Positions 16,545 through 44,314 of a stretch of 64,000 bases of DNA are shown here, in pieces. The DNA is from Arenicellales bacterium (GTDB lineage: Bacteria; Pseudomonadota; Gammaproteobacteria; Arenicellales; Poriferihabitantaceae). Position 1 is the stretch's first letter; each line of letters opens with the position of its first letter. The notes under the pieces are model-generated. The model saw only the letters and a program-made list of their open reading frames with translations. It was not told where the DNA came from and ran no database searches. A program made the translations under genes and the position numbers. Location of the stretch: contig OY734803.1 in NCBI GenBank assembly GCA_963457535.1, positions 1,108,977-1,172,976 of the forward strand, in the 5' to 3' direction.

Positions 16545-18995
16545 TCACTCCCCCCACCACAAATACGGGCGGAGCAGCGACACGAAGCGCTGCTTTTCTT
16601 CCGCGGTCATTTTTGCCGGGTTGATTTTCTGCTCGCTACCGTCGGCGAAGACCACGCTGTCGGCGGTGCGGGCGCGGACGGGCATGCCGAGGGCATTGGC
16701 GAGGGTTTCGGCGATGTCAATGTCGGGATACATGCTGGGCAGGCCGTTTTCGCGGGTGATCGCAGGGGCGAGTTTATCATCTGCGAAGAAAACATACTGC
16801 GCAAACGGCGATTTTGCGCTGTCAATTTCCAGTTGCTCGCCGTCTTCGTAGCGGGCGTTGCGCAGGGTTTCTTCGTATTGTTCCAGCGCGTAATATTTGA
16901 ACGCGCCGCCGCCTTTGTAGTCGGTTTCTTTGCTGATGCCGGATTGGTGGCCGGACAGCACTTTTTTCATGCGCGGCAAAATCACGGTGTTGAAGTGGTC
17001 GCCCATTTCCACGCCCAGCCATTTTCGGCCGAGTTTTTGGGCGACTGCTTGGGTCGTGCCGCTGCCGGAGAAAAAGTCACACACGACGCCTTCGCCGGAA
17101 AACGCGGACAAACAACGCATTAAAAGTTCTTCTGAGTTTTCGGTTTTGAACTCCCACGCCCGAGTGTAACCGGGTATGTCGGTCCAATTATTTTTGAGGT
17201 TTCGCCAAAGCGGCCAGTATTTTGCGCGGCCATTTTTGATCTTGACGCGCTGATGTTCGGATAGTTCGTCAAGTTGAGCTTGCGAAAGTCCCCATTGCCG
17301 CCCTTTCGGCGCAAAGATTTCTTTTCCGCCAATAATGCGGGATTCAGGAGCGCCTTCGCGCGCGCCCCTTGCCGGCAGAAACGGTTCGTGCCAGACCTCA
17401 TCCCGTCGAGGAACACGCAAACGGTTGATGTTGGTTTTCCCGCTTTTTCCCGCCAGAAAAAGACTGTCCACATCGTTCATGAGTTTTCGCTGTAAAGGAG
17501 TCGGGCTCTTAAAAAACTCCTGGGTTCGATTGACGACAATTTCGTTCAAAAAATTGTCACTGCCGAAAATGCTGTCAAGCAAACAACGCACAATCCAATT
17601 CCCGTTGATGTCACAGCGCACGAAAATACCGCCGTCTTCGGACAGAAAATTCTGTGCAAGTTTCAGTCGGTTCTCCAGCATAGTCGCCCAGCACGAATCT
17701 TTGTAGTTCGTGCGGTAGTCAAACTGGTCGCTGCTGTCCAGATTAAACGGCGGGTCAATGTAAATGCATTTGACCTTTTCCGCATACCGTTTTTGCAGCG
17801 TATTCAAGGCCTGCCAGTTTTCGCCATGCACAAATTCGCCGTCCAGCGCTTCGTCCAGATTGCCCAGCGCGGCCAGAATGTCCAACTCCAGATTTTTGAA
17901 ATGCCGCGTGTCCAGCGGCAAAAACTTGCAGTCCTTGCGCGCGCCGGCAATTTCGCCGGCGGGAAACTTCCCGTCCACCAGACCGAGTTCCCGCCATTCT
18001 TCCACTTGCGCTTTTGCGCCTTTGTGGGCGGCGATCTTTTTCAGCAGGCCGGACTTCTCCGCCAGTTTGTCCAGCGTAACGACATAGTTGAGCCCGCGCA
18101 CAAATTTCGGCTTCTCCCATACGCGGCGCAGTTCATCCTCAAACTGCGCGATGAAATCAATGATGTCGTAGGCGGTTTTTTTGACCGCCTGCAGTTGCGC
18201 GACGCGATTTGCGCCAAAGTCGCTCTCCTCCTTGTAGAGGTATTGAAACATCCACAAGTCAAATTGCTCGCGCAAAAATCCCCCGGCGTCCTTGTTGATG
18301 AAAAAGTCGGCTTCCACCTGGCGGCGGAAAACATTGATCGCTTTTTGCAGTTGCTCCTCGGACAGCGAAACAATTCCGTTCTCGCGGGCTTTTTTGAGGA
18401 TGTCGCCGGTTTTGGTTTTGCCGCTCCCTTTTTTGTAAGAGACGGCGAGATGGACGACCTTGTTGCCGTCTTCGGACTTTACCGCGCCAAATTCAAAAAC
18501 GAATTCTTTGCGCTCGTTGTTCTGCTTGTTTTCCACGCCGGCGGCGTCAAAGAAAAAACGCCGGGTGTTTTGCGGCTTGCCTTCCTCTTCCAGCGTTACC
18601 GGCAGCGACTGCACCAGCACATCGGATTTGACATAGTAGAGATTGCGCGTCTTCCACGACAGCGCGACATCCTGGCCGTCCGCATAGACGCGCTCGTAAG
18701 TCTTGGCGAATGCCGGCAGGTGGCGGAAGTAGATGGAGCCGCTCTCGCAAAAGTAGCGGCTGAAAAAGTCGTGGAGTTTATCGAACAACTCCTCGCGAAA
18801 AGCCGAGTTCTTTTCGGCGCGCGCGTCAATTTTGGCGAGCAGTTTCGGGCGGAGCGATTGAAAGTGCTTGCGCTTCACCCGCATCAGGTTGACGAAGCCG
18901 GAATCGCCCTCCACTTCGGCGCCGGTGAACAGGGATTCCAGCGCGTCCAGAAAGCGCTTTTCCTTGGTCCCGCTTGTGGTGGTTTGGTCTGGCAT
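16545..18995 (-). CDS. Type III Mod-like beta-class DNA methyltransferase with long N-terminal extension
   Basis: Motif IV CIYIDPPFN followed by motif I DFFSGSGTTQAVA. The N-terminal DFFINKDAGGFLREQFDLWMFQY resembles a segment seen in large defence-associated MTases. Its stop and the next start are arranged TGAGGGGATG. Confidence 0.85.
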   Translation of the reverse strand: MPDQTTTSGTKEKRFLDALESLFTGAEVEGDSGFVNLMRVKRKHFQSLRPKLLAKIDARAEKNSAFREELFDKLHDFFSRYFCESGSIYFRHLPAFAKTYERVYADGQDVALSWKTRNLYYVKSDVLVQSLPVTLEEEGKPQNTRRFFFDAAGVENKQNNERKEFVFEFGAVKSEDGNKVVHLAVSYKKGSGKTKTGDILKKARENGIVSLSEEQLQKAINVFRRQVEADFFINKDAGGFLREQFDLWMFQYLYKEESDFGANRVAQLQAVKKTAYDIIDFIAQFEDELRRVWEKPKFVRGLNYVVTLDKLAEKSGLLKKIAAHKGAKAQVEEWRELGLVDGKFPAGEIAGARKDCKFLPLDTRHFKNLELDILAALGNLDEALDGEFVHGENWQALNTLQKRYAEKVKCIYIDPPFNLDSSDQFDYRTNYKDSCWATMLENRLKLAQNFLSEDGGIFVRCDINGNWIVRCLLDSIFGSDNFLNEIVVNRTQEFFKSPTPLQRKLMNDVDSLFLAGKSGKTNINRLRVPRRDEVWHEPFLPARGAREGAPESRIIGGKEIFAPKGRQWGLSQAQLDELSEHQRVKIKNGRAKYWPLWRNLKNNWTDIPGYTRAWEFKTENSEELLMRCLSAFSGEGVVCDFFSGSGTTQAVAQKLGRKWLGVEMGDHFNTVILPRMKKVLSGHQSGISKETDYKGGGAFKYYALEQYEETLRNARYEDGEQLEIDSAKSPFAQYVFFADDKLAPAITRENGLPSMYPDIDIAETLANALGMPVRARTADSVVFADGSEQKINPAKMTAEEKQRFVSLLRPYLWWGE

Positions 18996-19017
18996 TGCGG
19001 ATTTTCCTGCGCGGGCG

Positions 19018-19046
19018 ATTTTACCGGATTATTTTTCCGGTGTAAA
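19018..19046 (-). promoter_or_regulatory. candidate sigma70 promoter of the four-gene methyltransferase operon
   Basis: On the minus strand: TTTACA, a 17-nt spacer (ccggaaaaataatccgg, with CCGG arms), then TAAAAT. An AGGAAA Shine-Dalgarno lies 8 nt before the ATG at 18995. Confidence 0.5.
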
Positions 19047-19064
19047 GTGTATAAATCCCAAAAA

Positions 19065-19096
19065 CCCCGCGCACATTAAAAAGTGCGCGGGGTTTT
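19065..19096. terminator. bidirectional intrinsic terminator
   Basis: 10-bp stem ccccgcgcac/gtgcgcgggg with loop attaaaaa. It is flanked by an A-run (19061-19064) and a T-run (19093-19096), and lies immediately 3' of the minus-strand aminotransferase gene. Confidence 0.75.
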
Positions 19097-19109
19097 GTTG
19101 CGGGAAGCG

Positions 19110-20471
19110 TCAGCCGGTAACCTCGTCCACCGCTTCGCGCACGATGGTCACGATTTCTTCCAGCACCGATTCGTCGGTGATCAGCGGCGGCGCGATGCAG
19201 ATTACTTCGCTGCGAACGCGCGTGTACAGGCCGCGTTTCATCAGCGCGCCGGTCAGTTTTGCGCCGAGGCCGAATTCGGGCGGGTACCATTTCTTGGAGG
19301 ACTTGTCTTCCACCACTTCCACGCCGGCCATCATTCCCAGTCCGCGCACATTGCCGACATGCGCGTGGTCGTCCAGCGCGGCATGCAGTTTGTCCAGCAG
19401 GAATTTCCCCTTGCGCGCGGCCTGCCCCGGCAGGTCTTCGTTCTGGATGATGTCCAGCGTCGCCAGCGCGACCGCGCAGGTGGTCGGGTGGCCGCTGTAG
19501 GTGTAGGCGTGCATCCACGGCGTTTTGCCCGAGGTGATGGTCTCGGCGATTTCGTCGCTCATGCCGATGCCGCCGAGCGGCAATGCGCCGGAAGTGATGG
19601 ACTTGGCGAACTGCATCAGGTCGGGCTCCACGCCGTAGTGCTGCAGGCCGAACATTTTTCCGGTGCGCCCGAAGCCGGTGATGACTTCGTCCGACACCAT
19701 CAGCACTTCGTAGTGATCGCAGATTTCGCGAATGCGCGCGAAGTAGTCGTCCGGCGCGACTATCACGCCGCCCGCGCCCTGCACCGGCTCGGCGATGAAC
19801 ATGGCGACGGTGTCGGCGCCCTGCTTCAGGATTTCCTTTTCCAATTCGTTCGCCGCGGCGATGCCCGGGGACGAGCCGTCGGCCGGCGCCGGGTAGTGGT
19901 AGGGGTCGGGCGACGGAATGTGGCTGAAGCCCGGAATCACCGGCGCGAACGCCGGCCAGTAGGAACTGATGCCGGTCGCGCACATCGCCGCCATGGTCAC
20001 GCCGTGGTAGCCCCAGATGCGGCCGATGACTTTGGTTTTGTCCGGCTTGCCTTTCGCCTTCCAGTAGGAGCGCGCGAGTTTGATGTTGCTGTCGGTCGCC
20101 TCGCCGCCGCCGCAGGTGAAGTAGAAGTTGTTGATGCGCGGATAGACGATGCCGGAGAGCCGCTCGGCCAGGTCAATCGCCGGGCGGTTGGTGCCGCCGG
20201 CGTAAGTGGAACTGAACGCGAGCGCGTCCATTTGCGCGGCCGCGGCGTCGCGCAGTTCGCGCCGCCCGTGCCCGGCGCTGACATTCCACAGGCACGACAG
20301 GCCGTCAATGAATTTGTTGCCGTCGGCGTCGTATAAATGCGCGCCCTCGCCGCGCACCCAGACGCGCGCGTTGGCGTGGCCCGCGGTGTGGTGCAGCGGG
20401 TGAATCAGGTGGCGGTGGTCGCGCGCCAGCAACTCGGCATTGCCGGCATCTTGGGGGACATTGATGTTCAT
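19110..20471 (-). CDS. class-III (omega-amino acid/pyruvate-type) PLP aminotransferase
   Basis: About 453 aa with SGGEATDSNIKLAR-like, DEVITGFGRTG and SKSITSG (here AKSITSG) Lys motifs. Confidence 0.85.
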   Translation of the reverse strand: MNINVPQDAGNAELLARDHRHLIHPLHHTAGHANARVWVRGEGAHLYDADGNKFIDGLSCLWNVSAGHGRRELRDAAAAQMDALAFSSTYAGGTNRPAIDLAERLSGIVYPRINNFYFTCGGGEATDSNIKLARSYWKAKGKPDKTKVIGRIWGYHGVTMAAMCATGISSYWPAFAPVIPGFSHIPSPDPYHYPAPADGSSPGIAAANELEKEILKQGADTVAMFIAEPVQGAGGVIVAPDDYFARIREICDHYEVLMVSDEVITGFGRTGKMFGLQHYGVEPDLMQFAKSITSGALPLGGIGMSDEIAETITSGKTPWMHAYTYSGHPTTCAVALATLDIIQNEDLPGQAARKGKFLLDKLHAALDDHAHVGNVRGLGMMAGVEVVEDKSSKKWYPPEFGLGAKLTGALMKRGLYTRVRSEVICIAPPLITDESVLEEIVTIVREAVDEVTG

Positions 20472-27673: not shown

Positions 27674-29287
27674 ATGAGCGCCAAAAAAACCACCACGAAA
27701 AATTCCCCGGCGGCATCTTCCGCAAAAAGCGCGGCCTCCGCGAAATCCAAAGATCCGCAGGAGCAGATTTACCAGCGGATTTTTTCCTACATGGACCTGG
27801 ACATGAACGGCCTGGTCAGCGTGGAGGAAATCCACAACACGCTGGCGGCGCGCGGCTACACGCCCGACAACCAGCGCGTCCGCGAGTTCTGCGAAAAACT
27901 CAAGGGCCTGAAGAAGGACAAAATTGATCTGCCCACTTTCAAGGAGATCGCCCGCAACCACATCATCTTGCTGGAGAAGGCGCTTTCCGGCGGGCTGGTC
28001 ATTCCCGACTTTCAGAAGTTCACCGAACAACTGGAAACAATGTTCGCCGAGGCGGCGAAAAACGACGGCGGGCAGGTCGCCGATTACATTCCGCAACTGG
28101 CGAAAGTTCCGCCGAAGAGTTTCGCGCTGTCGGTGTGCACCGTGGACGGGCAGCGCTGGTCCATCGGCGAGAACGGGGAATTTTTCAGCATTCAATCCAC
28201 CTCCAAGCCGTTCAGTTACTGCATCGCGCTGGAGGCGCACGGGCGCGACAAGGTGCACAAACATGTCGGGCGCGAGCCGAGCGGGCAGCGCTTCAATGAA
28301 ATCGTGCTGAACCGCAACGGCAACCCGCACAACCCGATGATCAACGCCGGCGCCATCGTCACCTCGTCGCTGGTGCGCCCGGAGTTGCCGCCGGCCGAGC
28401 GGTTTGATTTCTTCATCGGCGTGATACAGAAATTGTGCGGCGAAACCGGCGAGCCGGTGTTCAACAACGCGGTCTATCTTTCCGAGAAAGAAACCGCCGA
28501 TCGCAACTACGCGCTCGCGTATTTCATGCGCGAGAACAAGTCCTTTCCGAAGAACTTTGAACTGCAGGAGACCATGGACTTTTACATGCAGTGCTGCAGC
28601 GTGGAAATGAGTTCGGAAATGATGGCGACCGCGGCGGCGACGCTGGCGTTCGCCGGCATCTGCCCGACCACCGGCGAGCGCGTGTTCTCCTCGGGCGCGG
28701 TTAAGGACTGCCTTTCCATGATGTCCTCGTGCGGCATGTATGACTACTCCGGCGAATTCGCCTTTCGCGTCGGCATGCCGGCGAAATCCGGGGTCGGCGG
28801 CTGCGTCATCATCGTGGTGCCGAATCTTCTCGGCATGTGCATTTGGTCGCCGCCGCTGGACGAATACGGCAACTCGGTGCGCGGCGTGCAGATCTGCCAG
28901 GAGTTGGTGAACACCTACAACTTCCACACCTACGACTCGCTGATCAAAACCAGTTCCAAAAAGACCGACCCGCGCATGCGGCAGACTTCGTCGCAGGCGC
29001 AGAACATTTGGACCATGATCTGGGCGGCGTCGCAGGGCGACTTGGACGAGATTCGCCGCCTGGAGGCGCTCGGCGTGGACATCAACGAAGGCGACTATGA
29101 CGGGCGCACGCCGCTGCATTTGGCGGTCGCCGAGGGGCAGGCCGCGGCGGTGCAGCATTTCGTCTCGCGCGGCGCGCATGTGGATGTCAAGGACCGCTGG
29201 GGCGAGACGCCGATGCAGGAGGCGAAGCGGCAAAAGCGCGACGACATTATCAAGACGCTGAGCGGCGGCAAAAAAAGCGGCGGTTAA
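27674..29287 (+). CDS. kidney-type (GLS-like) glutaminase with N-terminal EF-hand-like bundle and C-terminal ankyrin repeats
   Basis: VIPDF...GGQVADYIPQLAK...SVCTVDGQR...REPSGQRFN...NPHNPMINAGAI...MPAKSGVGG, and a C-terminal GRTPLHLAVAEGQ...KDRWGETPMQEA ankyrin region. It is collinear with my recollection of human GLS over the whole length. Confidence 0.85.
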   Translation: MSAKKTTTKNSPAASSAKSAASAKSKDPQEQIYQRIFSYMDLDMNGLVSVEEIHNTLAARGYTPDNQRVREFCEKLKGLKKDKIDLPTFKEIARNHIILLEKALSGGLVIPDFQKFTEQLETMFAEAAKNDGGQVADYIPQLAKVPPKSFALSVCTVDGQRWSIGENGEFFSIQSTSKPFSYCIALEAHGRDKVHKHVGREPSGQRFNEIVLNRNGNPHNPMINAGAIVTSSLVRPELPPAERFDFFIGVIQKLCGETGEPVFNNAVYLSEKETADRNYALAYFMRENKSFPKNFELQETMDFYMQCCSVEMSSEMMATAAATLAFAGICPTTGERVFSSGAVKDCLSMMSSCGMYDYSGEFAFRVGMPAKSGVGGCVIIVVPNLLGMCIWSPPLDEYGNSVRGVQICQELVNTYNFHTYDSLIKTSSKKTDPRMRQTSSQAQNIWTMIWAASQGDLDEIRRLEALGVDINEGDYDGRTPLHLAVAEGQAAAVQHFVSRGAHVDVKDRWGETPMQEAKRQKRDDIIKTLSGGKKSGG

Positions 29288-29964
29288 TCGGCCGCGGGGG
29301 CCGCCACAAACGCGCGCATGTGAAAGGCCGCGTGCGGCGGCGCGTAGCGGTATGCGGAATGCGGGCATGCGCGGCGCGCTAGGCAGCCGCCGCGCATGCA
29401 GTCGGAGGCGCTTGATTCGCGCAAATAATTGAAGCAGGCGCGCGCGTCGTATTCGCGGCCGGTGAAAGCCGAAACCGGGCAGGCGCGCAGGCATGGTTTT
29501 TCCGCGCAATTGGCGCAGATGTCGGTTTTTAATTTCGCGGCGGATTGCGCCGGCGCATGCGCAAAAATCAGCGCGAAACGATAGGCGTGCCACAGCCCGA
29601 ACTCCGGGTGAATCAGCATGCCGAGCGCCGAGTTTTGCAGTCCGGCGCGTTTGCCCCAGCGGACGAACGGGCGGTGCGGCAGGCCGAACGGGAACACCGC
29701 GCGCGCGGAAAATTGCGCGGCCAATTCTTCGCCGATGCGCGCGCTCCAGCGGTTCAGCGGGTCGGGGTTGCCGTCGGCGAATTCGGGCGAGTCGCGGAAT
29801 GCGGGCCACATTTCGGAGCCGGCGTTGCCGATTAGGAACAAATGCGCGGCCGGTTTTTCACGGACTTTCGGGATTTCTTCGCGGGCATTTTCAGTCACGG
29901 CGAAATCGCCGAGGATGCGGAGTCCGTGGGGGCGGGTGGCGGAATGGAGTTTTTCGCGGGTCAT
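29284..29964 (-). CDS. 4Fe-4S cluster-binding protein (ferredoxin-like domain, QueG/RdhA-related)
   Basis: CANCAEKPCLRACP plus a downstream Cys-rich segment (CMRGGCLARRACP). The stop overlaps the convergent glutaminase stop. Confidence 0.5.
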   Translation of the reverse strand: MTREKLHSATRPHGLRILGDFAVTENAREEIPKVREKPAAHLFLIGNAGSEMWPAFRDSPEFADGNPDPLNRWSARIGEELAAQFSARAVFPFGLPHRPFVRWGKRAGLQNSALGMLIHPEFGLWHAYRFALIFAHAPAQSAAKLKTDICANCAEKPCLRACPVSAFTGREYDARACFNYLRESSASDCMRGGCLARRACPHSAYRYAPPHAAFHMRAFVAAPAAD

Positions 29965-29980
29965 TTGCGGCGGATTTTAA

Positions 29981-29989
29981 TGGTATTAT
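29981..29989 (+). promoter_or_regulatory. extended -10 element (TGgTATTAT) upstream of the orphan gene
   Basis: TGGTATTAT in an AT-rich divergent spacer, about 47 nt before the ATG at 30036. No convincing -35. Confidence 0.3.
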
Positions 29990-30035
29990 TCTCGAAATTA
30001 TTATTTGCTCACATCTCTGTCAATCAATCGGAAAA

Positions 30036-31229
30036 ATGGCTGCAACTGAAAAACCCAGCACGGTGCGCTTTGCCAAGGCGGTGGCGCTTCTTAAGCAAGA
30101 CATCGACGATCTCGAAAATGCCTTGCAGCAAGCAGGGGTTCCCGTCTTTGCGGAAATCGCCAGCCTTGAGGAAATCCCGAAAGCAAAAAGGAAAGACATC
30201 GAAAATCGACTGTGGCTGATATTGGCTTACGGTGAGTATCCCGTGGAAAAACTGTGGTCGGAAATGTGGTCATCATTGGACATGTTGCTTTCCATTGCAA
30301 AAAGCGACTGGCCTATCCGGTTCTACGCAACCAAATACAAAAAGGAATTTCGCCAAAAAATCAAACGCATTCTCGGTGCTGAAAATGCTCCTTCACGCAC
30401 TCACGTCGAACTGTGGATTGTGAAACAGGAAGTAGCTCCCATGGTGTTCCCCTTGCAGAGTTTCATCGACGAGGTCGACATCAATGACTACGTACATATG
30501 GCGCGAAATGGAATCTTACTGGATGAATGCATCAAACCCTACATTAACGCTCCCTCTCAGCATGCCCGTGAAGATGCCTCCATCTTCGAGAGCTTTCGCA
30601 AGATTGGGTCGGTTGCAGGGGACTATTACCTTCTGCTTGTTGATAAAGATCACGAGGGCAAACTGGCTTCTGACTACCGCGAACCCCGAACCTATTTTGG
30701 TAAGGATGGCCCCATCGAAGGGGAAGTGGAGTACGACAAAAAATGGATTGGGTTGCTGCAATACGATCTGTCCTCTTTCGATGAGATCATCCACAAGCGC
30801 TACTTTACTCCCGATGCCTGGGTGCAAAATGAAAGTAAACTTCTTCCAATCGCTATCACGGAAGAAGAGAAAAAGATACGGCCGCACATCCGCGAGCGAT
30901 TGCATGAGATTTATCATGCTTTCATTTTCAGCAACTGGATCGCAGTGGTTGCGCTGTCGCGCTGCCTACTGGAATATGCACTCGTCGACAAAGAGGATCT
31001 CCTCAAAATCAATGCTTACGAAAAAAATCAGCGAGTGAAGAGACTCTCTTGCTTGATTGCAGATGCCAAAAAAACCCGCCCCAAACTGGGAGGGTTTATG
31101 GCGCGCATAAAAGATGCCGGCGATGCTGTGATGCACCCGCAAAAAGACAGTCGCCTGCCCGACAAAGAAGCGGCGAGAAATTGCATCACTGACATCACCA
31201 AAATCGTAAGCGCCTTATACAGCGAGTAA
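30036..31229 (+). CDS. hypothetical protein; C-terminal ~110 aa is DUF4145-like
   Basis: Start set at MAATEKP, because the upstream part of the ORF is antisense to the Fe-S gene. Markedly low GC. The C-terminal RERLHEIYHAFIFSNWIAVVALSRCLLEYAL...ARIKDAGDAVMHPQ resembles the DUF4145 helical pattern. The N-terminal 280 aa is unrecognised. Confidence 0.55.
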   Translation: MAATEKPSTVRFAKAVALLKQDIDDLENALQQAGVPVFAEIASLEEIPKAKRKDIENRLWLILAYGEYPVEKLWSEMWSSLDMLLSIAKSDWPIRFYATKYKKEFRQKIKRILGAENAPSRTHVELWIVKQEVAPMVFPLQSFIDEVDINDYVHMARNGILLDECIKPYINAPSQHAREDASIFESFRKIGSVAGDYYLLLVDKDHEGKLASDYREPRTYFGKDGPIEGEVEYDKKWIGLLQYDLSSFDEIIHKRYFTPDAWVQNESKLLPIAITEEEKKIRPHIRERLHEIYHAFIFSNWIAVVALSRCLLEYALVDKEDLLKINAYEKNQRVKRLSCLIADAKKTRPKLGGFMARIKDAGDAVMHPQKDSRLPDKEAARNCITDITKIVSALYSE

Positions 31230-31300
31230 TTTTCTCGCTGTTGGGCGCTGGCGCATGGAAATCGGCGCAAACATCCTCCATTTATACGGAATTATTTAAC

Positions 31301-31329
31301 TTGACATTCCGTTCCGTACGCGGTATTTT
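31301..31329 (+). promoter_or_regulatory. candidate sigma70 promoter of the structured leader and OMP gene
   Basis: TTGACA (31301-31306), 17-nt spacer, TATTTT (31324-31329). Confidence 0.5.
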
Positions 31330-31336
31330 CACCCCC

Positions 31337-31457
31337 GCATAAGAGACACGATCCGCATTGCCGGGTCGCTCGTGAATACAACACCGCGATTAAGGGACGG
31401 CCCGGCCAGGTCGTTCTGCGGAAATCAGCGGGGAGTGCACTTTCGTGTCTCTTATGC
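31337..31457 (+). promoter_or_regulatory. structured 5' leader RNA domain (unclassified riboswitch/attenuator candidate)
   Basis: Perfect 14-bp closing helix gcataagagacacg (31337-31350) / cgtgtctcttatgc (31444-31457). It encloses nested helices 31352-57/31417-22 and 31360-68/31398-406. Confidence 0.5.
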
Positions 31458-31462
31458 AACGG

Positions 31463-31488
31463 CCCGGCACCAGTGCCGGGGTTCTTTT
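31463..31488 (+). terminator. intrinsic terminator within the leader, 25 nt before the OMP start codon
   Basis: cccggca/tgccggg 7-bp stem, 4-nt loop, then gttctttt. Confidence 0.6.
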
Positions 31489-31513
31489 AATCTCCCTTGC
31501 ATAGGAGACCACA

Positions 31514-32113
31514 ATGAAGAAGTACACTTGCGTTTTCGCGACGCTCGTCGCGCTCTGCTTCACTTTCGCCAATGCAACGCATGCCCAACAAGATCTGCCC
31601 GAGGTGACTCTCGGTGCATACTATGGGCCGTCGAAAATCGAACTGACCGGAGCGGGCGCACTTCAAGGCTCGGTGACCGGAACCGGCCGTGAAGTTGGCG
31701 TGTTTTTGCAAGTCCACCAAGGCATGTTCGGCTTGCACGGTGCGTTTGGCGTAAACTCCACGAAAGTCGACGCCACAATCAGAAGGTTTGGGCAGCAAGA
31801 TTCTTTCACAGAAAAAGCCGGACGTTCCCTTGACTTGATGGGCATGCTGTTCATCGAGGGCAGGAGAATCAACGGTATTGGAATGCTGGGATTTACCAGA
31901 TTCGAGACCGAAGCATCCGGCGATATCAGCGGAGGCGGCTTCATCACCGGGCTGAAATACGCGGTAGGTTTTGATGTCCCATTCCCCAATGGATGGGTCG
32001 CCCAACTAGCGTACGAATACGCGAACTTGGGCGAACTCAACATCACCGGTACAGCCGACAGATACGAACTCGAAGAATCCGGCTTACGCCTCCGCATCGG
32101 TGCGCGTTACTAG
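31514..32113 (+). CDS. small outer-membrane beta-barrel protein (OMP_b-brl-like)
   Basis: Signal peptide MKKYTCVFATLVALCFTFANATHAQ, alternating beta-strand pattern, C-terminal aromatic residue (...RIGARY). Confidence 0.7.
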   Translation: MKKYTCVFATLVALCFTFANATHAQQDLPEVTLGAYYGPSKIELTGAGALQGSVTGTGREVGVFLQVHQGMFGLHGAFGVNSTKVDATIRRFGQQDSFTEKAGRSLDLMGMLFIEGRRINGIGMLGFTRFETEASGDISGGGFITGLKYAVGFDVPFPNGWVAQLAYEYANLGELNITGTADRYELEESGLRLRIGARY

Positions 32114-32131: not shown

Positions 32132-32167
32132 GCCCCCGGCCGGCTTAGCCGCCCGGGGGCTTTTTTT
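32132..32167 (+). terminator. intrinsic terminator after the first OMP gene
   Basis: gcccccgg...ccgggggc stem followed by ttttttt. Confidence 0.7.
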
Positions 32168-32237
32168 GTTTCCGCCCGGCAAACTCCACGGCAATGCGGC
32201 TACAATGCCGCTACCCGCCAATTTCCGGACTCTATTA

Positions 32238-32795
32238 ATGAACAAACCCGCCCTCCTCGCCCCGCTCTTTTTGCTGCTCCTCGCCCCCCCCGTGCACGCT
32301 GAATTGCGGCTTGGCGGGCAAGTGGAGTTCGTTGGAACCGACGTCACCAGCGGCGCCGAAGAGTCGGCGAGCGACGCCGGAGTCGGCGCGTTCGCGCAAT
32401 TTCGCCGCACGCTGGACAGCGATTTGGTGGTCGGCGCGCATCTCAGTTTCGGGGGGAGTTCGCCTAATTTTGATTTCCCCGGCGGCCGACGAATCGAAAC
32501 CTCCGCCGGCGCCGATTTGCTCGGGCTGCTCGCTTTCTCCGGCGACAGTTACATTCCGGTAATCATGCTCGGCTATTCGTCGCTTGATGTTGTCGGGCCC
32601 AAAGATGAAATGGAGCGCAAAGAAGAAACTCTCACCGGCTGGAAATTCGCGTTCGGCGCGGAGTTTGAATTCACCGAGGATTTCATCCTGCACACGCTTT
32701 TTCAATTCGCCGATTACGGCGGAAAAATGTTCCACGGGGAAGATGTCAACGCAACCCAAACCTCCCTCCGACTCGGCTTCGCGTTCCGCTTCTGA
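32238..32795 (+). CDS. small outer-membrane beta-barrel protein (paralog-like)
   Basis: Start at MNKPALLAPLFLLLLAPPVHA (signal peptide). Ends ...LRLGFAFRF. Confidence 0.65.
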   Translation: MNKPALLAPLFLLLLAPPVHAELRLGGQVEFVGTDVTSGAEESASDAGVGAFAQFRRTLDSDLVVGAHLSFGGSSPNFDFPGGRRIETSAGADLLGLLAFSGDSYIPVIMLGYSSLDVVGPKDEMERKEETLTGWKFAFGAEFEFTEDFILHTLFQFADYGGKMFHGEDVNATQTSLRLGFAFRF

Positions 32796-33385
32796 TGCTC
32801 ATCCACATCCCCAACCTGCTGACGCTGTTTCGGGTGGCGCTGATTCCGGTGCTGGTGGTCATGTATTTCTGGCCGTCGGCATACCGCGAAGCGATTGTCG
32901 CCGGGATTTTTCTGCTGGCGGCGTGCACCGACTGGCTGGACGGATTTTTGGCGCGGCAAATGGACGCGGCCTCGCAACTCGGCGCGTTTTTGGACCCGGT
33001 CGCGGACAAGTTGATCGTGTCCACCGCGCTGGTGCTTTTGGTCGCGGACGCGGATATTCTGGGCATGGTGCTGCACCCGATGCCGTTTGCGATTGCGGTG
33101 GCGATCATCATCGGGCGCGAAATCGTGGTGTCGGCGCTGCGCGAATGGATGGCGGAACTCGGCGACCGCGGCGCGGTCGCGGTCGGCAGCATCGGCAAGT
33201 TCAAAACCGCGTCGCAAATGGTCTCCATCATCGCGCTGCTCTACGCCAAGCCGCTTTTGGGCCTGCCGGTGTTCCGGCTCGGCGAAATTTTGTTTTATAT
33301 CGCGGCGATTTTGACGCTGTGGTCCATGTTTGAATACCTGCGCGCCGCGCATCCGCGCATTCGGGAGAATGGGGTGGTGCGGTAG
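32795..33385 (+). CDS. pgsA: CDP-diacylglycerol--glycerol-3-phosphate 3-phosphatidyltransferase
   Basis: NLLTLFRVALIPV...DWLDGFLAR...DPVADK CDP-alcohol phosphatidyltransferase motif. Followed by tRNA-Gly, as in enterobacteria. Confidence 0.9.
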   Translation: MLIHIPNLLTLFRVALIPVLVVMYFWPSAYREAIVAGIFLLAACTDWLDGFLARQMDAASQLGAFLDPVADKLIVSTALVLLVADADILGMVLHPMPFAIAVAIIIGREIVVSALREWMAELGDRGAVAVGSIGKFKTASQMVSIIALLYAKPLLGLPVFRLGEILFYIAAILTLWSMFEYLRAAHPRIRENGVVR

Positions 33386-42766: not shown

Positions 42767-44314
42767 CTAAAAACTCGCGTCCGCGAAAGACGATTTGCGC
42801 TTTTCCATGAAGTCGCGCAGCCCTTCGTCAATGCCCGGGTCCAGCGGCGGCGGCGCGTATTCCTGCAGCATTTTTTGCGACAACTCGTGGGCGCGGTGCG
42901 CGGCGTCTTTTGCGCCGTCGGCCTGCCACTGTTCAAAACTGTTGTTGTCGGCGATGGCCGAGCGGTAGAACGCGGTTTTGAAGTTGCGCTGGGTGTGCGC
43001 GCAGCCGAGGAAGTGGCCGCCGGGGCCGACTTCGCGAAGCGCGTCCAGCGCCTGGCCGTTTTCGGACAAATCAAAACCGCCGGCGAACACCTGCATCATT
43101 CCGCATTGGTCGGCGTCCATCACCAGTTTTTCGCAGCAGGTCGCAAGCCCGCCCTCCAGCCAGCCGGCCGCGTGCAGCATGAAATTAACGCCGGCGAGAA
43201 CCCCCGGCAGCAAAGTGTGCGCGCTTTCAAACGCGGCCTGCGCGTCCGGAAGTTTGGACGCGCACAAGGAGCCGCCGCTGCGAAACGGAACGCCGAGCCG
43301 GCGCGCGAGCGCGGCCGCGCCGTTCAGCACCAGCGCCGGCTCCGGCGTGCCGAAAGTCGGCGCGCCGGACTGCATGGAAATGGAACTGGCGAAAGTGCCG
43401 AAGATGACCGGCGCGCCGGCGCGCACCAATTGCGTGAACGCCATGCCGGCCATCGCCTCGGCCAGGATTTGCGCGAGCGTGCCGGCCGCGGTCACCGGCG
43501 ACATCGCGCCGGCCAAAATGAACGGCGAAATCACGGTGCCCTGGTTGTTGCGCGCATACACCTCGGCCGCGCCGAGCATGCTCTCGTCAAAAGTCATCGG
43601 CGAGTTGGCGTTGATCAGATTGACCAGCACCGCATTTTTGTCGACGAATTCCCCGCCGAACACGATGCGGCACATGGCCACGCTGTCCTCGGCGCGCTCG
43701 GGATGCGTGACCGAGCCCATGAACGGCTTGTCGCTGTATTTGATGTGCGAATAGACCATGTCAAAGTGGCGCTTGTTGACCGGCAGGTCGGTCGGCTCGC
43801 ACACCGTGCCGCCGGAGTGGTGCAGCGACGGCAGCATGTAGGCGAGTTTGACGATGTCCTGAAAATCCGAAATCTTCGCGTAGCGGCGCCCCTCCTTGAA
43901 ATCGCGGATGAAAGGCGGCCCGTAGACCGGCGCGAACACCGTGTGCTTGCCGCCGATCATCACGCTGCGCTTCGGGTTGCGCGCTTTTTGTTCAAACTCG
44001 CGCGGCGCCGAGTCGCGAATGATTTTGCGGCACATGCCGGGCGCAAAACGGACGCGCTCGCCGTCAATCTCGGCGCCGGCTTCCTTGAACAATTTCAGCG
44101 CGGACGGGTACTGAAAGTTGATGCCGATTTCGGCGAGGATGGCGTCGGCGTTTTTTTCTATCAGCGCCAGGCCCTCTTCGCCGAGCAACTCGTATTCGGG
44201 GATGACGCGGGTGATGTAGGCCGGCGCGGACGGCGCGGCGGATTCGGCCGCGGCCTGGCGCGCGCGGCGACCGCCGCGTTTTTTGCGCGCGGTGGAGGTT
44301 TCGGAATCGGACAT
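42767..44314 (-). CDS. MttB-superfamily (non-pyrrolysine) quaternary-amine:corrinoid methyltransferase
   Basis: 515-aa uninterrupted ORF with no in-frame amber codon. Family-typical segments as I remember them: EEGLALIEKNADAILAEIGI, GGHFLGCAHTQRNF. Confidence 0.8.
   Translation of the reverse strand: MSDSETSTARKKRGGRRARQAAAESAAPSAPAYITRVIPEYELLGEEGLALIEKNADAILAEIGINFQYPSALKLFKEAGAEIDGERVRFAPGMCRKIIRDSAPREFEQKARNPKRSVMIGGKHTVFAPVYGPPFIRDFKEGRRYAKISDFQDIVKLAYMLPSLHHSGGTVCEPTDLPVNKRHFDMVYSHIKYSDKPFMGSVTHPERAEDSVAMCRIVFGGEFVDKNAVLVNLINANSPMTFDESMLGAAEVYARNNQGTVISPFILAGAMSPVTAAGTLAQILAEAMAGMAFTQLVRAGAPVIFGTFASSISMQSGAPTFGTPEPALVLNGAAALARRLGVPFRSGGSLCASKLPDAQAAFESAHTLLPGVLAGVNFMLHAAGWLEGGLATCCEKLVMDADQCGMMQVFAGGFDLSENGQALDALREVGPGGHFLGCAHTQRNFKTAFYRSAIADNNSFEQWQADGAKDAAHRAHELSQKMLQEYAPPPLDPGIDEGLRDFMEKRKSSFADASF

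Follow-up and report, generated by a model that had tools for sequence, protein, structure and literature searches.

What controls the synthesis of a small outer-membrane protein (OMP) whose mRNA appears to begin with a long and highly structured leader? This question is raised by the intergenic region 31230–31513 of a 64,000-nucleotide stretch of DNA (hereafter the window, meaning the whole stretch) from contig OY734803.1 of an Arenicellales bacterium, which is a sponge symbiont. The region is flanked by open reading frames (ORFs) of 397 and 199 amino acids, and the leader occupies the 177 nt ahead of the ATG of the latter, OMP1. The original prediction, made from the letters of the window, had proposed an unclassified cis-regulatory leader of an OMP gene and a riboswitch or attenuator candidate. 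Comparison with homologous loci supports this proposal, and we consider it very probable that the leader is a genuine conserved cis-regulatory RNA, whereas the riboswitch label remains that of a candidate and two of the three inner helices originally proposed are replaced here. As no described family matches, we regard the leader as a new family of a known kind, that is the structured riboswitch-like cis-regulatory leaders. A specific model, in which one layer of alternative pairings acts at the ribosome-binding site and a second one at an intrinsic terminator, appears reasonably probable. The elements on which the argument rests are, from 5' to 3':

31301–31329, + strand: promoter of the sigma-70 type, TTGACA-17 nt-TATTTT, matching the consensus at 10/12 positions; predicted transcription start site (TSS) at ~31336–31337, the first base of helix P1
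31337–31351, + strand: segment A, the 5' strand of P1 and proposed anti-anti-Shine-Dalgarno (anti-anti-SD) strand, GCAUAAGAGAC, mimicking the Shine-Dalgarno (SD) region GCAUAGGAGAC
31352–31365, + strand: P2 hairpin, tentative, from the RNAalifold consensus; UCCG (31352–31355) with CGGG (31362–31365), loop CAUUGC
31360–31368, + strand: segment X, the switching strand, GCCGGGUCG, able to pair with segment Y (31398–31406), with segment Z (31460–31468) or inside P2
31369–31373, + strand: 5' strand of P5, CUCGU, pairing with 31428–31432
31374–31383, + strand: 5' side of the internal loop, GAAUACAACA, consensus KAAUAMAAYA, nearly invariant, facing AAAUCA at 31422–31427
31384–31387, + strand: 5' strand of P4, CCGC, pairing with GCGG at 31418–31421
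31395–31416, + strand: P3' hairpin, GGACGGCC (31395–31402), loop CGGCCA, GGUCGUUC (31409–31416)
31418–31432, + strand: 3' strands of P4 (31418–31421) and P5 (31428–31432) with the loop strand AAAUCA (31422–31427) between them
31443–31457, + strand: segment B, the 3' strand of P1 and predicted anti-SD strand, partner of A (31337–31351) or of C (31497–31509)
31460–31490, + strand: intrinsic terminator; segment Z, CGGCCCGGC (31460–31468), includes the 5' arm, the stem is 31463–31469/31474–31480, segment W is the 3' arm, and the T tract is GUUCUUUUAA (31481–31490)
31491–31513, + strand: translation-initiation region with UCUCC (31491–31495), segment C, UUGCAUAGGAGAC (31497–31509), complementary to B, and the SD sequence GGAGA (31504–31508)
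31514–32113, + strand: OMP1, 199 aa, with a signal peptide and a predicted eight-stranded β-barrel; PF13505 at 29.9 bits

The elements named by the original prediction lie at or within 1 nt of where it had placed them, among them the promoter (TTGACA-17-TATTTT, found at 31301–31329), the terminator hairpin 31463–31480 with its U tract to 31488, and the 25 nt between the T tract (ending at 31488) and the ATG (31514). This spacing leaves no room for a separate OMP1 promoter, and OMP1 mRNA must therefore include the leader. In all seven leaders described below, the −35/−10 pair ends 6–7 nt 5' of the position where P1 begins, and TTGACA is retained in six of them. From this spacing the transcript should begin with P1, the TSS being judged by the position of the promoter. 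A pairing of CACCCCCGC (31330–31338) with GCGGGGAGUG, taken from one fold, was rejected, as it lies 5' of the predicted TSS and is not conserved.

Is the leader conserved? Relatives of OMP1 were sought with HMMER across the whole of a set of 1.84 billion representative proteins; just 11 were found, and the contigs of ten were looked up. Six of these ten carry a homologous leader directly 5' of the OMP gene, namely P0002 (locus L091), P0003 (L095), P0004 (L097/L098), P0006 (L100), P0009 (L101/L102) and P0011 (L105, a TARA ocean sample), giving seven leaders together with that of the window. All six come from sponge and ocean metagenomes. No leader was found 5' of the relatives P0005, P0007 and P0012. 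P0008, a 249-aa OMP relative, is preceded by a 5'-truncated variant (L104, 1–172), which keeps the anti-SD strand, a AACGACCCGGC...GCCGGGG hairpin and the complementarity to the SD sequence, and which has a shorter, different core and an additional hairpin ahead of the SD sequence. Between species, the OMP1 proteins are 26–48% identical, the leader cores 67–89% and the P1 strands 30–88%. An identical OMP1 is found on ten sponge metagenome or metagenome-assembled genome (MAG) contigs; as the leader is 100% identical in these, they carry no information on variation.

The association of the leader with one OMP family is strict, since all seven copies lie directly 5' of a family member, and it was never seen apart from this family in the window, the relatives' loci, the plasmids and the phages searched. 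A covariance model built from the seven leaders (R1) matches only these seven (131–168 bits), with no additional match across the window and the loci of the relatives. A word-indexed protein search with OMP1 returned OMP1 itself only, and a seven-sequence profile returned four proteins, all of them already known. Likewise, scans of JGI metagenome and viral contig collections for a conserved-core pattern gave no further leader, and blastn of the leader against plasmids and phages gave no match.

Base pairs were counted in an alignment of the seven leaders (A8) that was fitted to the model and leans towards its structure. Of the 304 cells in A8, 97.4% hold standard pairs, and both partners have changed in 16 of the 44 pairs. 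No column shuffle out of 500 attained any of five measures, and pairing fell to 36–48% when the 3' partners were slid by 1–3 columns. According to a tally of the per-pair table, ~44 of the 304 cells are G·U and eight are non-standard; the frequent G·U pairs argue that the folded strand is the + strand, i.e. that of the mRNA. Conservation and covariation, on which the original prediction had made its proposal depend, are both found, with the leader present in seven species and compensatory changes abundant. By helix, the changes are distributed as follows:

31337–31351/31443–31457, + strand: P1, compensatory changes in 11 of 16 pairs; sequence completely different in L101 and L105
31369–31373/31428–31432, + strand: P5, 100% of cells paired; one compensatory pair (the second), U-A in three, U·G in three and C-G in one
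31384–31387/31418–31421, + strand: P4, one pair (the fourth) seen as C-G, U·G, U-A and G-C
31395–31402/31409–31416, + strand: P3', 100% of cells paired; two compensatory pairs and three pairs with one-sided changes
31352–31355/31362–31365, + strand: P2, 100% of cells paired and nearly invariant, with weak support from a single C-G to U·G change; it can be prolonged into the final 3 nt of segment A
31463–31469/31474–31480, + strand: terminator stem, nearly invariant in the seven species, with a variable loop

P1 had been described as a perfect helix of 14 bp; it is indeed perfect, and it comprises 15 bp, since the arms 31337–31351 and 31443–31457 form an inverted repeat of 15 nt that is 100% complementary and flanks 91 nt. 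Such a repeat resembles the ends of a miniature inverted-repeat transposable element (MITE), and the structure might in principle be a DNA element of this or of the attC-like kind, or a chance product of GC richness. We consider this hardly credible: the element is present in one copy in the 64-kb window and is missing from 12 related loci, plasmids and phages, it always carries the promoter and SD sequence of one gene family, and its arms change between species by compensatory substitutions that include strand-specific G·U pairs. The MITE idea was rejected for its single copy in the window and for these changes in the arms. A 191-nt stretch of the region folds at −79 kcal/mol, as compared to −61.7 ± 4.75 kcal/mol for dinucleotide shuffles (z = −3.64; 0/200 shuffles as good), which argues against chance; its conservation with covariation in six further species does so more decisively.

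Two helices of the original prediction fared less well inside P1. The letters for the helix 31352–31357/31417–31422 (TCCGCA/TGCGGA) are present, yet only 85.7% of its cells are paired and two of its pairs fail in 2/7 and 4/7 sequences. It is disrupted by changes that P4 tolerates, namely G to A in L100 and G to C in L105, and it was rejected as broken in several homologues. The 9-bp helix X:Y (31360–31368/31398–31406) is likewise present and can form in 95% of cells, but it shows zero covariation (437/500 shuffles are as good) and is mutually exclusive with the covarying P3', P4 and P5; the 5' arm of P3' overlaps segment Y. What the comparison puts in their place is a core of P5, P4 and P3' with an internal loop between P5 and P4, the 3' side of which has the consensus RAAUNN across the seven leaders. 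Judged by its conservation, this GAAUACAACA/AAAUCA loop is the most likely candidate for a binding or tertiary-contact site.

How might this structure reach the ribosome-binding site? Strand B of P1 is also complementary to segment C, which covers the SD sequence. In the window, the B:C duplex is computed at −17.6 kcal/mol with 0/500 shuffles as good, and cognate duplexes reach −14.4 to −27.7 kcal/mol in six of the seven species (0–19/500 shuffles as good). Non-cognate B:C duplexes across the three P1 sequence groups are weak, with the exception of B of L101 with C of L105, which have GUUGUU in common. In L101 the 5' strand of P1 reads CGCUCUCAACAGCGUGA and the SD-proximal region carries CUCUCAACA twice, and in L105 the corresponding sequences are GCUGAAACAGCGCGAGG and GCUGAAACAACGUGAGG. 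That is, B:C complementarity tracks P1 even where the sequence of P1 is wholly different, so that A and C are kept alike, both being complementary to B. This pattern indicates that A, B and C correspond to the putative anti-anti-SD, anti-SD and SD strands of a translational switch. When A is blocked, the minimum free energy structure pairs B with the SD region in 5/7 sequences. The original prediction had assigned SD masking to TCTCC (31491–31495) and GGAGA (31504–31508); both sequences are present, but the main predicted anti-SD element is the 3' strand of P1 and not this small hairpin.

The second layer concerns termination. The hairpin CCCGGCA-CCAG-TGCCGGG (31463–31480) has a 7-bp stem with six G-C pairs and is followed by GTTCTTTTAA. 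By direct reading, four species have a clear U tract, L095 and L105 have a weak one and L101 has none, and termination is therefore a frequent, not a universally conserved, output; as far as sequences can tell, B:C pairing is the more widely conserved one. Segment Z repeats Y, and W (GCCGGG) resembles X, which would allow X to compete for Z. The X:Z pairing holds in 96.8% of cells at the correct register (slide −1), with one G-C to U-A change; X, Y, Z and W vary so little that covariation offers no means of choosing among their pairings. If nested, X:Z lies 27 kcal/mol above the ground state because P1 is excluded, and an antiterminator of this simple kind was rejected; X:Z is competitive only as a pseudoknot with P1 persisting. 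For this case, the computed difference between X:Z with the fold of P5, P4 and P3' (fold α) on the one hand and Z:W with X:Y on the other ranges from −2.9 to +12.4 kcal/mol, and the invariant, pseudoknotted X:Z pairing is energetically competitive in 3/7 sequences. In the core alone, fold α, which is supported by covariation, is 2–10 kcal/mol less stable than the X:Y fold (fold β) in 6/7 sequences. That selection preserves fold α although it is less stable suggests that something stabilises it in vivo.

As a separate observation, the U tract of the terminator (GUUCUU) can pair with the Lys-Lys codons AAGAAG that follow the AUG (31481–31522), enclosing both the SD sequence and the start codon. 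A similar pairing is predicted in L091, L097 and L100, and it could be a by-product of the MKK signal peptide adjoining the U tract.

The two layers combine into the following model. Transcription would start at the first base of P1, and P1 (A:B, 15–17 bp) would close a ~90-nt core in which P5, P4 and P3' are arranged around the internal loop. Formation of A:B would leave the ribosome-binding site free, whereas formation of B:C would sequester it. Between B and C, the Z:W hairpin, followed by a U tract in most species, would act as an intrinsic terminator with predicted 3' ends at 31486–31490. In fold α, P5, P4 and P3' would form and X, left unpaired, could make an antiterminator with Z; in fold β, X would pair with Y and leave Z:W to terminate. 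An effector acting on the conserved core, be it a small ligand, an ion or an RNA-binding protein, would choose the fold and thereby set OMP1 synthesis. P1 might be opened by kinetic control during transcription, by RNase III or 5'-end processing, by a protein or by an antisense RNA. What is unusual in this arrangement is the very long 5'-terminal closing helix that doubles as an anti-sequestrator, the nesting of the terminator in the sequestering helix and a module similar to sRNA-Xcc1, to which we return below.

Several points weigh against this model. The P1 state is 2.6–19 kcal/mol more stable than the B:C state, and P1 is transcribed first; with 15–17 bp, it also greatly exceeds the length usual for P1 in metabolite riboswitches. 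L095 has no convincing B:C duplex and L101 no U tract. Segments X, Y, Z and W hardly vary, and X:Z crosses P1, so that the two can coexist only as a pseudoknot, the geometry of which we argue to be feasible. Only seven independent sequences are at hand, and the alignment used for counting was fitted to the model structure. Finally, the TSS, the terminated RNA and read-through, like the effect on OMP1, are predictions from sequence.

With the TSS at 31337, the computed ground state consists of P1 plus the terminator (−78.2 kcal/mol). Together with the start of P1 at the predicted +1 position in 7/7 species and the OmpA-like nature of the barrel, this is what would be expected of a constitutive leader that stabilises the mRNA and tunes translation without sensing, P1 guarding against 5'-end-dependent decay and the terminator fixing the level of read-through. 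Such a leader would leave unexplained why the SD region co-varies with P1 for pairing with B, why the ~90-nt core with its invariant internal loop is kept at 67–89% identity, and why Z repeats Y and W resembles X. We therefore consider it unlikely.

If the two-layer switch is taken as the working model, the nature of the effector becomes the next question. It is possible, and we put it forward tentatively, that the leader is a genuine riboswitch of a new class with a metabolite or an ion as its ligand; the P5/P4/P3' core would be the aptamer, and the ligand would stabilise fold α, with X blocking the terminator and the SD sequence open. Features by which riboswitches are generally recognised are present: covarying helices surround invariant unpaired nucleotides, and potential alternative pairings, which would form the expression platform, overlap the structured core. 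In addition, the association with one gene family is strict (7/7), the selected fold is not the thermodynamic optimum and no known class matches in Rfam 15. On the other side, the length of P1 is unusual, the family has very few members within a narrow phylogenetic range, and the gene context yields no ligand candidate, as OMP1 is a surface barrel (OmpA-TM, Ail, OmpX) and not a transporter or enzyme. A further step, for which the odds are slightly poorer still and which we offer as speculation, is that the leader represents the first riboswitch class devoted to a small surface barrel like those of OmpA-TM, Ail and OmpX, through which sponge-associated and marine Gammaproteobacteria with reduced genomes would tune a hypervariable protein to a small molecule or ion derived from the host or the envelope.

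Does the leader belong to a described RNA family? At gathering score, Rfam 15 finds four tRNAs alone in the whole window, and no family on the 401-nt region or in the six homologous loci; the Rfam hit that the original prediction had named as a refuting result did not appear. The sole recurrent match, sub-threshold and present in 3/7 leaders, is to sRNA-Xcc1 (RF02221) and always spans X to Z. It scores 32.9 bits in the window (401-nt scan; 27.7 bits, E = 1.3, in the whole-window scan), 30.4 bits in L105 and 25.1 bits in L097, as compared to a gathering score of 53, and L091, L095, L100 and L101 gave no match at E ≤ 1. Four true members of sRNA-Xcc1 from a plasmid collection score 68.8–72.6 bits. 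In a reciprocal search with filters off, the best match of R1 at a true member reached 11.1 bits (E = 0.27), which is not significant; locally it lands on the AAUACAAY/GAAU module. The other sub-threshold matches in the window are probably due to chance, namely PYLIS_3 at 43168–43267 (− strand, 32.9 bits versus a gathering score of 38) and the overlapping His_leader (+ strand, 29 bits) and STnc320 (− strand, 29.4 bits) at 18992–19113.

sRNA-Xcc1, with a length of ~88 nt, occurs in Proteobacteria on integron cassettes, transposons and plasmids, and has been reported as a cassette-borne small RNA (sRNA) sited upstream of symE (PMC2996969; bioRxiv 10.1101/2025.06.18.660453). Its closing helix GCCGGG.../...CCCGGC (GgCcGGggG/CccCCgGcC) aligns with the potential X:Z pairing of the leader, in which one pair is compensated, but in which Z also serves as the 5' arm of the terminator and the helix would cross P1. 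Its hairpin A, with the internal loop AAUACAAY/GAAU flanked by an ACC.../...GG helix, is equivalent to the P5-loop-P4 unit, which is conserved and covarying in the leader. The leader differs in a 32-nt insertion (P3') in place of the tetraloop, and in its additional outer P1 of 15–17 bp, the terminator arm that competes for Z and the OMP gene context, as compared to symE and cassette genes. Hairpin B (ggCcgu-loop-acgGuu) has no conserved local counterpart in A8, where the linker and segment B occupy its place, and the cmscan alignments contain several non-canonical pairs at this position. Membership in RF02221 was therefore rejected on the score, the missing hairpin B and the reciprocal search. 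The leader may still share a structural module with sRNA-Xcc1.

Like the leader, true sRNA-Xcc1 members (L108 1485–1569, L109 1482–1572 and L110 1498–1580) precede a co-directional ORF, at a distance of 38–46 nt. Hairpin B of L110 (CCUCUGCUUGG) shows complementarity to the SD region (CCAAGCAGAGG; 5/500 shuffles as good). As this is significant in 1/4 true members, the idea that hairpin B generally hides the downstream SD sequence was dropped; the sequences hint that some sRNA-Xcc1 elements may act in cis. That the AAUACAAY/GAAU loop and the GCCGGG/CCCGGC helix form a sensor module common to both RNAs, in which case sRNA-Xcc1 would also be a cis-acting sensor and not only a trans-acting sRNA, is less likely than the dedicated riboswitch class considered above.

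These matches bear on yet another explanation, namely an independent ~150-nt trans-acting sRNA gene, possibly a diverged relative of sRNA-Xcc1, that would lie in front of OMP1 by chance or repress it through segment B. A strong promoter and a terminator do delimit an RNA of this size, the sub-threshold matches recur over the same X-to-Z span in 3/7 leaders, and B is complementary to the translation-initiation region of OMP1. Against this stand the 25-nt gap, because of which the mRNA must carry the leader, the missing U tract in L101, the consistent association of the element with the OMP family and the low RF02221 scores (25–33 bits versus 53) with a reciprocal search that is not significant. 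We consider an independent sRNA gene quite improbable, and the cis-acting switch remains our preferred reading.

OMP1 itself has an AlphaFold model with a predicted local distance difference test (pLDDT) score of 84 and an eight-stranded barrel, for which the best Foldseek matches in the Protein Data Bank (PDB) are the OmpA transmembrane domain, Ail, NspA, OmpX and OmpW. It is followed by a strong terminator of its own at ~32135–32168 and is thus monocistronic. Behind this bidirectional terminator lies a second small β-barrel gene, OMP2 (32238–32795, + strand; 185 aa, PF13505), which is nearly identical between strains, in contrast to OMP1. The gene order OMP1-OMP2-pgsA is retained in L091 and L097, whereas the related MAGs L011–L015 and L019 have uvrC-pgsA. 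Synteny around pgsA, with relatives drawn from a set of 185,579 species genomes, groups the organism with sponge-associated Gammaproteobacteria (Candidatus Poriferihabitaceae and allies); in the closest MAGs of Candidatus Poriferihabitaceae and other Gammaproteobacteria, pgsA follows uvrC, and no OMP1, OMP2 or leader was found there.

The sponge metagenome that contains locus L091 belongs to the same project (PRJEB9378), and the locus is 96–100% identical to the window in the flanks 29550–29966 and 32169–33223, the latter covering OMP2 and pgsA. Between these flanks, promoter, leader and OMP1 diverge together as one hypervariable cassette (L091 415–1241 versus window 31280–32110), the region coding for mature OMP1 being only ~50–75% identical. 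This divergence suggests that alleles are replaced or that a surface protein is under diversifying selection. The 397-aa ORF just 5' of the leader promoter (30036–31229) has no Pfam match and is absent from L091, which joins window position 29966 straight to ~31320, and an insertion or deletion of ~1.35 kb is therefore apparent (window ~29967–31319). Many short assemblies break at ~29.73–29.90 kb and ~32.18–32.27 kb. Further upstream, a glutaminase gene (27674–29287, + strand) encodes an N-terminal EF-hand_14 domain and C-terminal ankyrin repeats. This combination of EF-hand, glutaminase and ankyrin repeats is typical of the eukaryotic kidney-type glutaminase, and the protein may be one of the 'eukaryote-like proteins' of a sponge symbiont.

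OMP1 is a fast-evolving surface protein and probably a contact point for host or phage. Should its leader core bind a ligand or a protein, this would provide a handle on surface-protein regulation in uncultured sponge symbionts. The leader is compact and its alternative pairings (A:B versus B:C, X:Y versus X:Z) are clear and mutable, which makes the hypothesis directly testable. Beyond this organism, the recurrent likeness to sRNA-Xcc1 suggests a structural module shared with a widespread, poorly understood family.

How does the proposed switch compare with known systems? Translational riboswitches such as the thiM thiamine pyrophosphate (TPP) riboswitch of E. coli use an expression platform of anti-SD and anti-anti-SD strands. 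The leader follows the same three-strand logic, in which one strand pairs either with the SD sequence or with a partner in or closing the sensor domain, and it likewise combines invariant unpaired nucleotides with covarying helices in a core of putative sensor role. It departs from these riboswitches in its closing helix of 15–17 bp instead of the usual 4–8 bp, in the terminator placed inside the loop of the sequestering helix and in matching no known aptamer class in Rfam 15. With trp-type and riboswitch attenuators it shares two look-alike pairs of segments (X with W, Y with Z), which would allow either X:Y with Z:W (termination) or X:Z (antitermination). Unlike trp-type attenuators, it contains no leader-peptide ORF, its X:Z pairing would need to be a pseudoknot across P1, and of the homologues one has no U tract and two have a weak one. 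The 5' untranslated region (UTR) of E. coli ompA carries a 5'-terminal stem-loop that protects the mRNA from 5'-end-dependent decay, and here, too, a long structured leader with a helix at or near the 5' end precedes the gene for an OmpA-like barrel; the ompA leader has no terminator, conserved internal-loop core or SD-mimic arrangement. Small outer-membrane barrels are usually described as being under the control of trans-acting sRNAs. For OMP1, the control logic would sit in the leader of its own mRNA, which travels with the gene as a cassette, even between strains whose flanking sequences are 96–100% identical.

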